DNA of 31,860 nucleotides, from IMG/VR virus record IMGVR_UViG_2778261226_000007; one strand, written 5' to 3'. Numbering within the stretch: position 1 is the stretch's first letter; the number at the start of each line of letters is the position of its first letter. Source of the stretch: a virus. Taxonomy: Duplodnaviria; Heunggongvirae; Uroviricota; Caudoviricetes. Shown here piece by piece: positions 3,701 through 14,637 of the stretch. The notes under the pieces are model-generated. The model searched no databases. It was not told the DNA's origin and saw nothing but the letters and a program-made list of their open reading frames with translations. The translations under genes and the position numbers were made by a program.

Positions 3701-3942
3701 GTAGCAAAAGCCCCGGCAAATGCCCCCGCCATATTCAGTGCCGAAGATTTAGCTGTATTTATCTGATCCGTCACTTCTGCCAGTGCACGCCGCATTTCAC
3801 GGGATGCAGCAGCGGACTGCCGGCCTCCGTTCTGCATGGTACGGTAGTAATCCTGCCCCATACGCGAAGCCCGGGAGATCTCTGACTGGAATGACCGGGA
3901 ATTTGCCGAGATTTTAATAATCAGCTCACGTAATGTCGCCAT
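742..3942 (-). CDS. Tail tape measure protein
   Basis: 1066-aa ORF with long Ala/Gln-rich coiled-coil stretches, located directly after the tail assembly chaperone pair as in lambda/HK97 tail modules. Confidence 0.9.
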   Translation of the reverse strand: MATLRELIIKISANSRSFQSEISRASRMGQDYYRTMQNGGRQSAAASREMRRALAEVTDQINTAKSSALNMAGAFAGAFATGHLISLADEWNSVNARLKQASQSTDDFQVSQRELMAISQRTGTAFSDNASLFARSAASMREYGYSSEEVLKVTEAISTGLKLSGASAAEASSVITQFSQALAQGVLRGEEFNSVNENGDRVIRALAAGMGVARKDLKAMADNGKLTADKVVPALISQLGALRDEYAAMPDTVSSSATKVENAFMAWVGGANEASGVTKTLSGVLNGIAGNIDTVATAAGALVAVGVARYFGNMASSAGSATAGLITAARNEVALAEAQLRGTQIATARARAAVYRAQQAVAATRGTERQAAAEAKLAAAQASLTRNIAARTAAQTTLNTVTSVGSRLLSGALGLVGGVPGLVMLGATAWYTMYQNQEQARESARQYAATIDEIRQKTSAMSLPEASDNEEKTRQALEEQNRLINEQEGKIRGLKNQIADYQRWLDESSQSGSGAEIILKGLAEATNQLAVEQSRLTQMQGKAQSIQDVLAGLEERRVALIRQQAAEQNKAYQSLLIMNGKHTEFNRLLGLGNELLQQRQGLVNVPLRLPQATLDDKQQTALNNSKRELALSRLKGEARERARLGYAADDLGFVGEAYRTARQNYINNSLDAWRNNQANKPKAHKKTEAEKTEDIYKRLIKQQKEQIALAGQNTELAKMKYQVSQGELSTLSEAQKKTLLQNAALIDQKKIREQLAAYESSLADSNASARASDDAQLLGYGEGSRMRERLQEMWSIRHEFEQKNNELLRQYQAGEIEEALWKQEKELNKKYLEERLSDQQDYYAKADALRNNWNAGLQEGLTNWADSATDYASQAADAVVSTMDGLVSNISDALAGNVVEWRNWGSSVLREVSKILMNAAIVNGLKSLSGAGGWLGTVGGWISGAVANAKGGVYTSANLSAYSNTIVDTPTYFAFAKGAGLMGEAGPEAIMPLTRAADGSLGVRAIGNVNGGGGFVYSPVYHISIQNQGSNGEIDTRSARGLVDLIDSRVVSIMQSSRRDGGLYSA

Positions 3943-3956
3943 TTACTTTACCCCAT

Positions 3957-3981
3957 AAAAAAACCGCTTCTGCGGTTTTTT
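3957..3981. terminator. Hairpin with flanking A-run and T-run (bidirectional intrinsic-terminator-like)
   Basis: aaaaaaaccgcttctgcggtttttt: stem accgc/gcggt flanked by A7 and T6, between the lipoprotein gene stop and the tape measure start. Confidence 0.5.
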
Positions 3982-3991
3982 AAGATGATAA

Positions 3992-4333
3992 TTATTGGCA
4001 AAACAACTTATATTTTTCCATACTGCTTGGATCATGATCATTAACAATTGTTACAGTCCCATGACTCTTAACTTTTCCATCCACAACTTCCAAATAAACA
4101 AAATATGGCTTTTTCCCTGTATATCCACCAAACGTGTTTTTTGAATTAACATCACCACAAACATAACCATATAAATCACCTGACTTATGAAAAAAAGAAT
4201 TAAATTTTGCACTATCAGGATCAATAAGCTTATCTTTAACTAAGTTTTCCCCTAAAGAAATAACATAATTATCTGATGGCTTACATGCACTAATAAAAAA
4301 CAAACAAGCTAATGTCACCACTGATTTTCTCAT
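3992..4333 (-). CDS. Small lipoprotein (moron-like insertion in the tail module)
   Basis: Start MRKSVVTLACLFFISAC gives a signal peptide plus lipobox Cys, with an AGGAGG RBS. The segment is visibly AT-rich compared with flanking tail genes. Confidence 0.6.
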   Translation of the reverse strand: MRKSVVTLACLFFISACKPSDNYVISLGENLVKDKLIDPDSAKFNSFFHKSGDLYGYVCGDVNSKNTFGGYTGKKPYFVYLEVVDGKVKSHGTVTIVNDHDPSSMEKYKLFCQ

Positions 4334-4391
4334 GATTAATCCTCCTGACTTTGAGTAAAGCATTCAATTTCAAAACGATTAAAAAATTATC

Positions 4392-4682
4392 TTATAGTGA
4401 AGACATTAGAGCAACCTCTAATCCAATAAATGGATCATCGCATTTATTTTCTTCTGATTCATGCTCCCACTGAAGAAGCGCATCATTCAGTGGTACTTTG
4501 ACACCCTGCGCACCGTAAACAGCTGAAACAATCTGGGCAGCCCGGATATCAGCCCGTTCGTCCCCCAGCGGGCTGAACCTGTCAAATTCTGCCCACATCA
4601 TGATTTCTGATGCGGACATTTCCCGGCGTAACTCTGACAATGTGCGCCCCATCCTGAGTGCCAGCATCATCAGAAAACGCAT
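4392..4682 (-). CDS. Tail assembly chaperone, frameshift-extension segment (lambda gpT-like part of a G-T fusion)
   Basis: ORF lies in the -1 frame relative to the upstream chaperone ORF and immediately downstream of a slippery A AAA AAG site, positioned between the major tail protein and tape measure genes. Confidence 0.65.
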   Translation of the reverse strand: MRFLMMLALRMGRTLSELRREMSASEIMMWAEFDRFSPLGDERADIRAAQIVSAVYGAQGVKVPLNDALLQWEHESEENKCDDPFIGLEVALMSSL

Positions 4683-4693
4683 CCCCGGAAGCG

Positions 4694-5080
4694 CTACTTT
4701 TTTTTAACCTCGCCGGCATCACTGATCAGTTCCAGAGACTGCCGAAGAAGCCGCGCATGCACCGGGCCATACACGGCAATCACCTGTTCACGATCATCCT
4801 CTGAAAATACAGGTTGCAGTCCGGTATCACACAGAACATCAATGAACAGTTCAACATCTGCCTCCAGATTTCGGCGGGCGCGCTCCGCAACGGATAACGG
4901 TGTCTCATCATCTTTTGCTTTAACGATCTCCTGCCAGCGCAACCAGGCTTCTGCAGAAGGTTCCCGTAATACAACCGTTGCCCCTTCCCATTCAGGCACA
5001 TCAACAGTTTTATGGCGAAACCCCGACATCGTTGCCAGAGCCAGATTACGGATATTTTTAGTCATCACACCCATCCTCAT
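4694..5080 (-). CDS. Tail assembly chaperone (lambda gpG-like)
   Basis: Sits directly downstream of the major tail protein gene and ends in the slippery run ...GEVKKK*. Its start overlaps the major tail stop (TAATG). Confidence 0.7.
   Translation of the reverse strand: MRMGVMTKNIRNLALATMSGFRHKTVDVPEWEGATVVLREPSAEAWLRWQEIVKAKDDETPLSVAERARRNLEADVELFIDVLCDTGLQPVFSEDDREQVIAVYGPVHARLLRQSLELISDAGEVKKK
4697..4703 (-). promoter_or_regulatory. Programmed -1 ribosomal frameshift slippery heptamer (A AAA AAG)
   Basis: Minus strand reads G GTT AAA AAA AAG TAG at the end of the G-like ORF. A -1 slip continues as KKVALPG into the 4392..4682 ORF. Confidence 0.65.
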
Positions 5081-5784
5081 TAACTGACGGTTACAGTGCA
5101 GGAAGTGGAGGTCACTTTGTTAACCGGGCTTGCTGAATCAGAAATCTCGCAGGTATATGCGCCCGCATCACCGGATACTGCCAATGCCTTACTGAACGTT
5201 GCCGCCGTCTGTCCGGAAACAGGAGAACTACCTTTCTTCCAGACATAAGAATAAGGCGGCACACCACCGGCAGCCTCAACCACCATTTCGAGTTTCGCTC
5301 CGGCAGAAACCTGCAGCGTGCTGTTTAAATCGACCTTCACTTTCAGCGGCTCTGTCGTCAGCACAGGTTTACCTTTCAGGCGCAGGGAAAACGTTGCAGC
5401 CACAACACCATTGGTTCCTGCAGACCAGGTATGCTGACGCACCTCTGCCATAAAGGTAAATCCGTTTCCTGACGGAAAAATAACTTTAAAGCCATACGTG
5501 GTGTCATTGTCATAGGCACTGCGCAACGCGTTCTGGGCAGCATTGAGGTAAAAGTTGCCTGACATGGAAATCTCTGACGCGGCACCAAGACCGTTAATAT
5601 TTTCCTGCTCAACAGAACACAGCGTGGTGACATCAATATCCTGCTTTTGTCCTGCGGTAAACTGCACCTCTTTGATTGTACAGCTCAGGCCAAGATAGCT
5701 GGCAGAATCCAGGGTTTCTGCTGTTACCGGTGCAGACGAAATCATAATTTTCGTCAGTTGCGAACGCTCAAAATTAGAGGACAT
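5080..5784 (-). CDS. Major tail protein with C-terminal Ig-like domain
   Basis: 234-aa ORF upstream of the chaperone pair. The C-terminal ~80 aa (PYSYVWKKGSS...AYTCEISDSASP) looks like a Big_2/Ig-like decoration domain common on phage major tail proteins. Confidence 0.75.
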   Translation of the reverse strand: MSSNFERSQLTKIMISSAPVTAETLDSASYLGLSCTIKEVQFTAGQKQDIDVTTLCSVEQENINGLGAASEISMSGNFYLNAAQNALRSAYDNDTTYGFKVIFPSGNGFTFMAEVRQHTWSAGTNGVVAATFSLRLKGKPVLTTEPLKVKVDLNSTLQVSAGAKLEMVVEAAGGVPPYSYVWKKGSSPVSGQTAATFSKALAVSGDAGAYTCEISDSASPVNKVTSTSCTVTVS

Positions 5785-8578: not shown

Positions 8579-9229
8579 TTAAAATTTAAGATTTTTCAGT
8601 GCATTCAGTGCGGCATCCACATCCTCAGCATCACGCAGGGATAAAGCGCCATATCCCCCGGCCATGAATGCTTTGGCCTGGGTTCGCGAGAGTCCAACAT
8701 CGCGCAGGACTCGCTCAATAATTTTCTGATCAGGGATCTCCCCACGCGCCAGCGCATTTTTCACATCGCTGATGCGTGCCTCATCATTGGAAGGAAACGT
8801 CACCAGACTGACCTCCCACAAGTCGATCTCTTTCAGCAGGAATACCCCTTTTTCACGGTCGTACTCCCAGTCTTTCAGGATGTAGCCAATAGAAAGGCCG
8901 GTTAAAGAACCGGCCTTCATATGGGCATGTGCACGTTTTGCCAGGGGATCATCATCAACGAGTAATCGCCCCCTGACATAAAGCCCGACATCATCTTCTT
9001 TCATTTCGGTGTACACACCGATGGGCTCATCCATGCGGTGCTGCCAGAGCAACGCAGGCAGCGCCTTTTTTTCGCTCCATTTCTGGAGTGTTGTGGTAAA
9101 GGCACCGGGGACCACCACATCATCGTGGCTGTCCTTAACACCAAAAACAGAACCGTAACCTTCAAATTCCCCGGAATCACTGACGGATTTCAGGTTCAGC
9201 GGTATATCAAGACGCTGTTTTGTCTGCAT
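8579..9229 (-). CDS. Prohead protease (HK97 gp4-like)
   Basis: Located between the portal and capsid genes. Start taken at MQTKQ, which has an AAGGAG RBS; the ORF-track start at 9259 is less likely. Confidence 0.8.
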   Translation of the reverse strand: MQTKQRLDIPLNLKSVSDSGEFEGYGSVFGVKDSHDDVVVPGAFTTTLQKWSEKKALPALLWQHRMDEPIGVYTEMKEDDVGLYVRGRLLVDDDPLAKRAHAHMKAGSLTGLSIGYILKDWEYDREKGVFLLKEIDLWEVSLVTFPSNDEARISDVKNALARGEIPDQKIIERVLRDVGLSRTQAKAFMAGGYGALSLRDAEDVDAALNALKNLKF

Positions 9230-10448
9230 CTCCACTCTCCTTTTTCTTACCGTTGTCATCGCCAGCAGAGGGACTGGTGGTCATGTTCATCGGTGTCAGA
9301 TACACATCACCACCCGGTCTGGGATTCATATCTTCCAGATCACGGCAGTCATTAGGGGAATAAATCCCCCAGTTGATCCCCGTGGCATACGCTTCAAAGC
9401 GGGATTTCATGTCGCCACGCAACAATGCTCCGGCATTAAATTTGGCGTAAAACTTCCCCTGCTTGCTCTCCCTGACCAGCCCTGTATTGATCCGTTGCTC
9501 AATACGGGTCAGATACGGCACAAGGGAATAGTTAATGAAACCAAGCCCCAGCTCTTCAATATTGTTGAAGGTGGCGCGATCGGTGTTCTGCACCATATGC
9601 AGCGGCACGCGGAACAGGCGACAGATTTCTTCCAGCTGAAACTTACGGGTTTCCAGGAACTGGCTGTCCTCGGCATTCAGTGCCACCGTTTTCCAGTCCA
9701 GCCCCATTTCCAGAATCATCGGACGATGAGAATTTCCCAGCCCGACATGCCGTTCCTCAAAATCCTTTTTGATACGCGCATAAGCCTGATCAGAAAGTTG
9801 TTGATCCGTACGCAACACACCGGATGTCACTGCACCGTTGCCAAACAACCTGGCACCGTGCTCCTCGGTTGCCGCTGCCAGTGAAATGGCCTCACGCGCA
9901 TACGCAATGGGATTCAGCCCGACCAGTCCGTCCAGCGTCAGAGTACGCACATGCCAGATTTCATCCTGAGTCAGCACATCCACAGAACCATCCGGAAATG
10001 TCACCTGATAAACCGGCTGCCACTGACAGTTCAGCTTCGGCTCCACACATCCCGGATCTATAGGAAGAAGCTCCACCACTTCTCCCAGCGCCTTCACCTT
10101 GTAAGCGTAAAAATTACCCCGCAGACACAGGCAGACGATAACCAGCTCCCAGAATTCCTGCGGTGTCATGTAGCCATTGGGTTTTGCCGAAATCAGCTTA
10201 TGCAGTCGTTCATCCACTGCCCGTGTTTTAAGAGTGCCGGTGATTTTGTAGAGGCTGCAGGGCAGCATACCAACAGACTCCGCCAGCACCCTGACGCAGG
10301 AATACACCGCCGTCAGCCGCATGGCCCGCTGACTGCTGATCCGCTTTCCGGTATAGGTGTCGTATGACAACCCAAGTTCTTCCGCAAGCATCCCGGGCGT
10401 TGTGACGGGGGTATTATTTTTACGTTGAAAAAGCCCCTGGAAAAACAT
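9207..10448 (-). CDS. Portal protein (HK97 family)
   Basis: 413-aa ORF downstream of the terminase large subunit with an acidic C-terminus (GDDNGKKKESGDADKTAS). Confidence 0.85.
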   Translation of the reverse strand: MFFQGLFQRKNNTPVTTPGMLAEELGLSYDTYTGKRISSQRAMRLTAVYSCVRVLAESVGMLPCSLYKITGTLKTRAVDERLHKLISAKPNGYMTPQEFWELVIVCLCLRGNFYAYKVKALGEVVELLPIDPGCVEPKLNCQWQPVYQVTFPDGSVDVLTQDEIWHVRTLTLDGLVGLNPIAYAREAISLAAATEEHGARLFGNGAVTSGVLRTDQQLSDQAYARIKKDFEERHVGLGNSHRPMILEMGLDWKTVALNAEDSQFLETRKFQLEEICRLFRVPLHMVQNTDRATFNNIEELGLGFINYSLVPYLTRIEQRINTGLVRESKQGKFYAKFNAGALLRGDMKSRFEAYATGINWGIYSPNDCRDLEDMNPRPGGDVYLTPMNMTTSPSAGDDNGKKKESGDADKTAS

Positions 10449-14454: not shown

Positions 14455-14637
14455 TCAGCTCTGCAGACACTGTCGAACACCGTCGACAATTTCGCAGACC
14501 TGAGAAGCCGTATCGAAAAGCTGGCGCGCCTTATCCAGGCTGACGCACCCCACCAATAAAAAAGGCACCAGTATCGCTACCAGTGCCCATTTTGCCGCCG
14601 CTCGCGGCATTCTGTGTGTCCGGTGTTTTCGGCTCAT
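14455..14637 (-). CDS. Small putative lipoprotein
   Basis: Signal peptide plus lipobox (ALVAILVPFLLVGC). Immediately preceded by an unlisted 36-aa hydrophobic ORF at about 14638..14748. Confidence 0.3.
   Translation of the reverse strand: MSRKHRTHRMPRAAAKWALVAILVPFLLVGCVSLDKARQLFDTASQVCEIVDGVRQCLQS

Follow-up and report, generated by a model that had tools for sequence, protein, structure and literature searches.

How two adjacent tail genes lying in different reading frames come to be expressed is the question raised by a locus in a stretch of viral DNA of 31,860 nucleotides (nt), to which we refer, at its full length, as the window (Caudoviricetes; IMG/VR record IMGVR_UViG_2778261226_000007). 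The two genes, a G-like tail assembly chaperone open reading frame (ORF) and the T-like ORF that follows it, are read off the minus strand, with T in the −1 frame relative to G. We are largely confident that the locus represents the G and GT tail assembly chaperones of an HK97-like siphovirus prophage of Escherichia coli and that the longer of the two is made via a −1 frameshift on the heptamer A AAA AAG. From the letters and from related phages, we infer that the fusion is produced, that the GT:G ratio is low, that the slip is ribosomal, and which proteins are the binding partners.

Anatomy of the G/T junction

The letters of the minus strand at the end of the G-like ORF are ...GCC GGC GAG GTT AAA AAA AAG TAG CGC TTC CGG GGA TGC GTT..., in which GTT (4708-4706), AAA (4705-4703), AAA (4702-4700), and AAG (4699-4697) are followed directly by the TAG stop (4696-4694). 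This agrees base for base with the initial annotation, which had read the end of the ORF as GTT AAA AAA AAG TAG and placed a slip on A AAA AAG at 4697 to 4703; that heptamer is indeed phased as X XXY YYZ relative to the upstream ORF. Past the slip, the codons are GTA GCG CTT CCG GGG ATG (V A L P G M R F L M M L A L R...), in frame with the ORF from 4682 to 4392, and translation of the −1 frame thus bears out the proposed continuation through KKVALPG. The GT fusion, 5065 to 4697 joined to 4697 to 4392, comprises 224 amino acids (aa) with the junction ...GEVKKK-VALPGMRFLM...; the predicted product of about 25 kDa has the junction peptide ...EVKKKVALPGMR and the junction-spanning stretch VKKKVALPGMRF. 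The −1 frame remains open between 4703 and 4392, in contrast to the +1 frame, which closes after only 37 codons beyond the stop. Because the −1 frame carries a TAA just upstream of the heptamer, a productive shift is confined to the A run and heptamer at 4703 to 4697, so that the zone of productive shifting spans only 10 nt and is made up of that element itself. The features of the junction and of its neighborhood are collected in Table 1.

Table 1. Coordinates of the chaperone junction and adjacent genes in the window
Feature	Coordinates	Strand	Remarks
G-like tail assembly chaperone ORF	4694..5065	−	123 aa plus TAG stop
Slippery heptamer A AAA AAG, proposed −1 shift site	4697..4703	−	X XXY YYZ phase of the G ORF
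A8 run enclosing the heptamer	4698..4705	−	May serve secondarily as a substrate for RNA polymerase slippage
TAA stop in the −1 frame	4704..4706	−	Upstream bound of the productive-shift zone
TAG stop of the 0 frame	4694..4696	−	Adjoins the heptamer and terminates gpG; read directly
−1 frame segment, T part of the fusion	4392..4697	−	101 codons plus TAA stop (4394-4392)
Linker V-A-L-P-G	4683..4697	−	Shift-dependent translation only; upstream of the first T-frame ATG (4682)
Major tail (tube) protein, C-terminal Ig-like domain	5080..5784	−	PHROG 158, 1.2e-107; Pfam Ig_2 and weak tail tube matches
Tape measure protein, 1066 aa	742..3942	−	PF06120, 6e-83; PF20155, 1.5e-57; PF09718, 3.5e-13; PHROG 339
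AT-rich inserted gene (moron), 113-aa lipoprotein-like protein	3992..4333	−	PHROG 2320; function not assigned

The start of G was less straightforward. An upstream ATG at 5080 would yield a G protein of 128 aa ending in ...DAGEVKKK before the stop. The ATG at 5065 has the Shine-Dalgarno (SD) sequence GAGGA 7 nt upstream (duplex of −9.0 kcal/mol), the Pfam profile match and all homologs begin there, and both RefSeq and the annotation of phage Evi use it. Given the SD, the homolog alignment, the Pfam match, and these annotations, initiation at 5065 is more likely than at 5080. Hence, of the span from 4392 to 5080 initially assigned to the pair, the G stop stands, and the G start is better moved to 5065.

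Profile searches support the assignment of the two ORFs as a tail assembly chaperone pair, as first proposed. With the virtual fusion as the query, the G part matched Pfam PF06222 (Phage_TAC_1; 9.3e-58) and the T part matched PF06223 (Phage_tail_T; 1.2e-17, 64.5 bits against a cutoff of 25.9 bits, at about nt 4616 to 4413). The G part was further unified with the tail assembly chaperones of PHROG 344 (1.8e-45) and with the HK97 tail assembly chaperone of known structure (PDB code 2OB9; 4.9e-49). T matched PHROG 337 and PHROG 14766 (tail protein), and the 224-position profile of the latter aligns across both halves of the fusion in order. A scan of NCBIfam with G, T, and the product of the inserted gene returned no match, and a single-sequence AlphaFold2 model had a predicted local distance difference test score of 41.5, too low for use. 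The gene order (tail tube, G, T, inserted gene, tape measure) places the pair between the tube and tape measure genes, within a complete HK97-type head and tail module; the tape measure protein is, by analogy with lambda, the presumed binding partner of the G domain. The window is identical (100%) to prophages in several complete E. coli chromosomes, among them that of E. coli E21845/O/A (NZ_CP076272), and a related G-T region occurs in about 900 of 5,426 complete E. coli genomes.

We then asked how much weight the heptamer can bear. The window contains 21 copies of AAAAAAG, where about 8.6 would be expected, so the bare motif carries little meaning. The copy at 4703 to 4697 is the only one of the 21 that is phased in a long ORF, stands 0 codons before its stop, and opens at least 100 codons of the −1 frame. 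Across the 31 long open frames of the window, in-phase A_AAA_AAG is found at 2 of 8,782 codon positions (about 2e-4 per codon) and any canonical heptamer in phase at 19; the chance of a heptamer at the sole permissive position is thus on the order of 1e-4 to 1e-3. The second in-phase A AAA AAG (9065-9071, minus strand) lies inside the ORF 8579..9259, a gene for a 226-aa HK97-family prohead protease, and is probably incidental, since a −1 slip there adds just 12 codons before a stop. At a further copy of AAAAAAG (14558-14564, plus strand), each of the three forward frames stays open beyond 60 codons (109, 118, and 64).

Conservation of the −1 arrangement

A tblastn search with the fusion recovered 226 phage records, in which the match fell into two pieces wherever both the G and the T parts were covered. 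We retrieved ten diverse junctions, that of the window included, which range from Escherichia to Burkholderia phages at 36 to 100% identity. In all ten, T lies in the −1 frame and is open there for 91 to 102 codons, whereas the +1 frame is open for only 19 to 44 codons, and a slippery motif ending on the Lys codon AAG (A AAA AAG, G GGA AAG, G GAA AAG, or A AAG) occupies the homologous site. The junctions read GTT AAA AAA AAG TAG in the window and Evi, AGA AAA AAG TAG in Stx2a_1447, CGG GAA AAG in HK446 and LAU1 (HK97 likewise), GTG GAA AAG in ENT39118, GCG GGA AAG in mEp390, GCA AAG TAA in Klebsiella phage P7641, GGA AAA AAG in Bcep176, and GCA AAA AAG in phiE125. As in the window, the stop adjoins the slip motif in Stx2a_1447 and Klebsiella P7641.

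The last of these merits separate description. Its junction (GCA AAG TAA AAA TGC...) offers only the tetranucleotide A AAG before the stop, and its T-frame ATG overlaps the stop region (TAAAAATG). To judge from this layout, P7641 may use single-tRNA slippage or termination-reinitiation and not a heptamer.

The comparison was extended to 80 loci from IMG/VR. T is in the −1 frame, with a slippery motif at the Lys AAG site, in 78 of these: the junction reads A8G before TAG in 57 and A9 before TAG in 2, and 19 have the HK97-type motif. The two that remain carry an A7 run and have T in the +1 frame. Among the close relatives, the codons beside the run vary both synonymously and nonsynonymously (GGC/GGA/GGT; GAG GTT/GAA GTT ATT), and the Lys codons are AAA AAA AAG in 57 loci and AAA AAA AAA in 2. 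Thus, the initial description of this site as the conserved tail chaperone frameshift of long-tailed phages is upheld by the −1 arrangement in the ten diverse junctions and in 78 of the 80 IMG/VR loci, and by the record of HK97, in which gp14 is annotated as "translated due to a -1 frameshift". Joined coding sequences (CDSs) already exist in the records of HK446 and Bcep176.

Within this one protein family, the slip motif drifts between A AAA AAG, G GGA AAG, G GAA AAG, and A AAG plus a stop, and the −1 relation is maintained. The G/GT frameshift at this locus is nevertheless an already known, textbook instance of recoding that introduces no new principle, and its main import is for annotation. 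RefSeq, through the Prokaryotic Genome Annotation Pipeline (PGAP), and most records of the lineage split G and T and give T an arbitrary internal start; as a consequence, the 224-aa GT fusion is missing from protein databases for a widespread prophage family.

Counterevidence and alternative accounts

Several observations weigh against a programmed ribosomal frameshift at this site; they concern the signals around the heptamer, the way in which T is annotated, the length of the A run, and its variation among contigs. The first set arose from a search for stimulatory elements. We folded 131 nt around the site and, for the window and nine relatives, the 75 nt that follow it, against dinucleotide-shuffled controls. 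RNA structure at a spacing of 5 to 9 nt downstream was neither significant nor conserved in the window and the nine relatives: the predicted hairpin of the window begins only 16 nt past the heptamer, z-scores range from −1.1 to −1.7 in the window and from −0.1 to −2.8 in the relatives, and the structures are not common to them. The search for a stimulatory structure downstream of 4697, suggested in the initial annotation, therefore yielded none. A recurring GC hairpin about 34 nt downstream was considered as a stimulator and rejected, being too distant and located in the codons for the invariant LALRxGR. Likewise rejected was an upstream SD-like stimulator, GAGG (4711-4708), which is only 4 nt from the heptamer and variable among close relatives. 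With no conserved downstream structure and a misplaced GAGG, the efficiency of frameshifting is not predictable. The signal here appears, from its letters, to be the heptamer (with the adjoining stop) alone, without a conserved stimulatory structure, as in lambda, in which the heptamer is enough and shifting stays at a low level.

The second point is that PGAP/RefSeq and most phage records list two CDSs, with the RefSeq T starting at ATG 4670, which would fit an absence of recoding, with G and T as separate proteins and T initiated independently at ATG 4682 or 4670. The Met of the FLM motif is invariant, and a weak SD-like GGGGA lies 11 nt before ATG 4670 (−5.7 kcal/mol), although it is found in the lineage of the window only; ATG 4682 has no SD (−1.0 kcal/mol), and in the relatives an SD is absent or negligible (+0.7 to −3.5 kcal/mol). 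More telling is the conservation of the −1-frame peptide upstream of this Met, which begins directly past the slip site as K-V/A-x-x-P-G and includes, in nine diverse fusions, an invariant Pro. The last 11 to 12 codons of G in the Burkholderia phages are also covered by conserved T-frame sequence, and the 0-frame stop falls at or inside the T-frame motif FLM/LEM-LALRLGR. Separate genes would require neither the −1 offset, present in 88 of 90 sequences, nor a slippery Lys motif at every junction, and the annotation of HK97 gp14 as a frameshift product is likewise at odds with them. For lambda, Levin et al. in 1993 reportedly detected only gpG and gpGT and no free T. We accordingly regard an independently translated T as very improbable.

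Third, the heptamer is embedded in a homopolymer of 8 A, at which RNA polymerase might stutter (T8/A8) and add an extra A, so that the transcript would read GTT AAA AAA AAA GTA GCG... and encode the same fusion. The protein would be identical to that from a ribosomal slip, and a contribution from this source is possible; moreover, the run is A9 in two related loci, where AAA stands at the position of AAG, and this makes for a poorer ribosomal site in E. coli and a better slippage tract. Transcriptional slippage in bacteria is efficient on runs of 9 A or T (PMC5009743), however, and the run in the window is one short of this. Furthermore, relatives keep the −1 arrangement with short runs, namely, G GGA AAG in mEp390, CGG GAA AAG in HK97 and HK446, GCA AAG TAA in Klebsiella P7641, and A6G in the Stx and Burkholderia phages, most having 3 to 6 A. 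As these motifs are too short for polymerase slippage, the conserved element is the tRNA-Lys AAG slip site and not the length of the run. The 3′ AAG, and not AAA, is also retained in 57 of 59 close relatives, which fits the preference of ribosomal slippage for A_AAA_AAG over A_AAA_AAA (PMC5009743). Transcriptional slippage as the main source of the fusion is, on balance, unlikely.

Finally, the length of the run is not uniform. An exact-flank scan of IMG/VR found A8 in 77 of 80 contigs and A7 in the other 3, in which flanks identical to those of the window enclose a run that places T in the +1 frame. Such runs are prone to error, and the frame break could be read as a mutation or a homopolymer sequencing error in one continuous gene, i.e., a pseudogene or an artifact. 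Against this, the same A8 junction recurs in those 77 independent contigs and, with 100% identity, in several complete E. coli chromosomes. Phages of different genera share the −1 offset despite differing junction sequences, and an in-frame fusion would eliminate the short G product. We consider an error or a pseudogene extremely improbable as the explanation of the frame break.

Variants in run length were seen at the IMG/VR loci L025, L063 (also L098, L108, and L140), L069, and L070. In the A7 contigs, the shift of T to the +1 frame is accompanied by a G that is longer by about 37 codons; the A9 loci read A AAA AAA TAG and retain T in the −1 frame. For the A7 cases, the candidates are a homopolymer sequencing error, an inactivating mutation, and a +1-shifting variant. 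In-frame fusion was considered for loci with unusually strong E-values and rejected, for these proved to carry A7 and to have T in the +1 frame.

Proposed mechanism, related systems, and the inserted gene

In the mechanism that we propose, the majority of ribosomes would translate the G ORF from 5065 to 4694 and stop at TAG to give the 123-aa gpG, the counterpart of HK97 gp13. A minority would move back one nucleotide with tRNA-Lys on A AAA AAG (4703-4697), which could happen in two ways. In one, the P- and A-site tRNA-Lys would re-pair in tandem from AAA AAG to AAA AAA; in the other, peptidyl-tRNA-Lys in the P site would slip from AAG to AAA while the adjacent UAG waits for release factor 1. 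P-site slippage during the wait for a release factor underlies so-called shifty stop effects, and we rate this as an equally possible subroute; a slowly decoded stop in the A site beside the heptamer could favor the slip. The shifted ribosome would then read GTA GCG CTT... to 4392 and release the 224-aa G-T fusion. We think it decidedly unlikely that the A8 run and UAG combine a ribosomal −1 slip, a release factor 1-dependent shifty stop, and RNA polymerase stutter into a GT:G ratio responsive to host physiology, or that the A7, A8, and A9 variants constitute a heritable on/off switch for prophage tail production.

A ribosomal −1 slip accords with what is established for such sites. A_AAA_AAG, the site used by dnaX, ranks with the most shift-prone −1 sites of E. 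coli, and the single tRNA-Lys of E. coli pairs better with AAA than with AAG (PMC5009743). Frameshifting between G and T is a widely conserved feature of long-tailed phages (PMC5009743). In lambda, the G:GT ratio is about 30:1; the tape measure is coated by G and by the G portion of GT, the major tail protein is recruited by T, and neither protein is found in the virion (PMC5009743). According to the summary of Xu et al. (2014) given there, lambda G binds the tape measure protein and T binds the major tail protein, and assembly requires both; the same source cites Xu et al. (2013) for the need for a balanced G:GT ratio in lambda tail assembly (PMC5009743). By analogy with lambda gpG/gpGT, many copies of G, together with the G part of GT, would coat the tape measure protein of the window; the T domain would recruit the major tail protein, upon which the tube would polymerize to its measured length, and neither chaperone would stay in the virion.

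Among the closest known systems is HK97 gp13/gp14. The proteins belong to an orthologous family (G is about 61 to 63% identical) with the same Pfam pair, PF06222 and PF06223, and the two loci share the gene order, T in the −1 frame, a slip at a Lys codon (AAG) close to where G ends, and a moron slot between T and the tape measure gene. They differ in the junction: HK97 and HK446 have CGG GAA AAG with 5 further 0-frame codons before a TAA, whereas the window has the canonical A AAA AAG inside an A8 run with TAG directly after it. The cargo of the slot also differs, being gp15 in HK97 and a 113-aa lipoprotein-like protein in the window.

The founding example, lambda gpG/gpGT (G GGA AAG), of which the window pair is a functional analog, is likewise encoded between V, the gene for the major tail protein, and H, that for the tape measure protein. 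Its heptamer is in the same codon phase with a slip of tRNA-Lys from AAG to AAA, its T domain is found by the same Pfam model (PF06223), and it too has no evident stimulatory structure. The G parts, however, come from different sequence families, and a pairwise BLASTP of the window GT against lambda GT was not significant, the Pfam T profile being the sole link. In addition, lambda T, at about 144 aa, is the longer of the two and has a several-codon overlap with G, and no gene lies between lambda T and H. The Burkholderia counterparts, Bcep176 gp69/gp69′ and phiE125 gp13/gp14, are members of the same protein family as the window pair (36 to 38% identity) with A AAA AAG in phase, and the joined product of Bcep176 is already annotated as "lambda T equivalent". 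Their 0 frame runs 11 to 12 codons past the heptamer, with a corresponding G/T overlap, in contrast to the stop that adjoins the heptamer in the window.

The cassette of E. coli dnaX has the identical heptamer in the same host and relies on the one tRNA-Lys that also decodes the window site (PMC5009743). A shift in dnaX leads almost at once to a stop and gives a shorter product, whereas the shift in the window adds 101 residues. A cassette of the dnaX type would have an SD-like element about 10 to 14 nt upstream of the heptamer (about 10 nt in dnaX) and a stable stem-loop or pseudoknot 5 to 9 nt downstream; such stimulators are lacking in the window, where GAGG is 4 nt from the heptamer and the hairpin, which is not significant, starts 16 nt downstream.

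The gene inserted between T and the tape measure gene breaks the usual adjacency of the two and lies outside the frameshift device. It falls in a region with a G+C content of 28 to 34% (the low-GC tract extends over about 3900 to 4450), as opposed to about 50 to 55% in the flanks. The N terminus of its product (MRKSVVTLACLFFISAC) has a lipoprotein-type signal and a lipobox, and the gene is preceded by a strong GGAGG SD. The protein had no match in scans of Pfam, NCBIfam, or PADLOC, and no connection was found to the Tai tail assembly interference systems (PMC11364771), a link that we considered and discarded. Homologs have a patchy distribution among temperate phages of Escherichia, Salmonella (ES18 gp20 and SEN4/5), Klebsiella, Pseudomonas, Acinetobacter, and Mycobacterium, and 18 of the 5,426 complete E. 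coli genomes carry the gene in this slot. The position is that of HK97 gene 15, the first described moron, which encodes a superinfection exclusion protein (PMC3594210); because of this shared slot, a role in superinfection exclusion or at the envelope is a reasonable guess for the inserted gene.

The DNA similarity of about 97% to the closest phages (Evi and others) breaks off near 4449, within the coding region of T. The C-terminal ~20 residues of T differ accordingly (EHESEENKCDDPFIGLEVALMSSL in the window and EQEQTEGASDPFAGLENALLIVSQ in Evi), with the motif DPFxGLExAL retained (about 4392 to 4449, minus strand). As the similarity ends at this point, we read it as a mosaic recombination joint inside T, which would have been acquired together with the moron.

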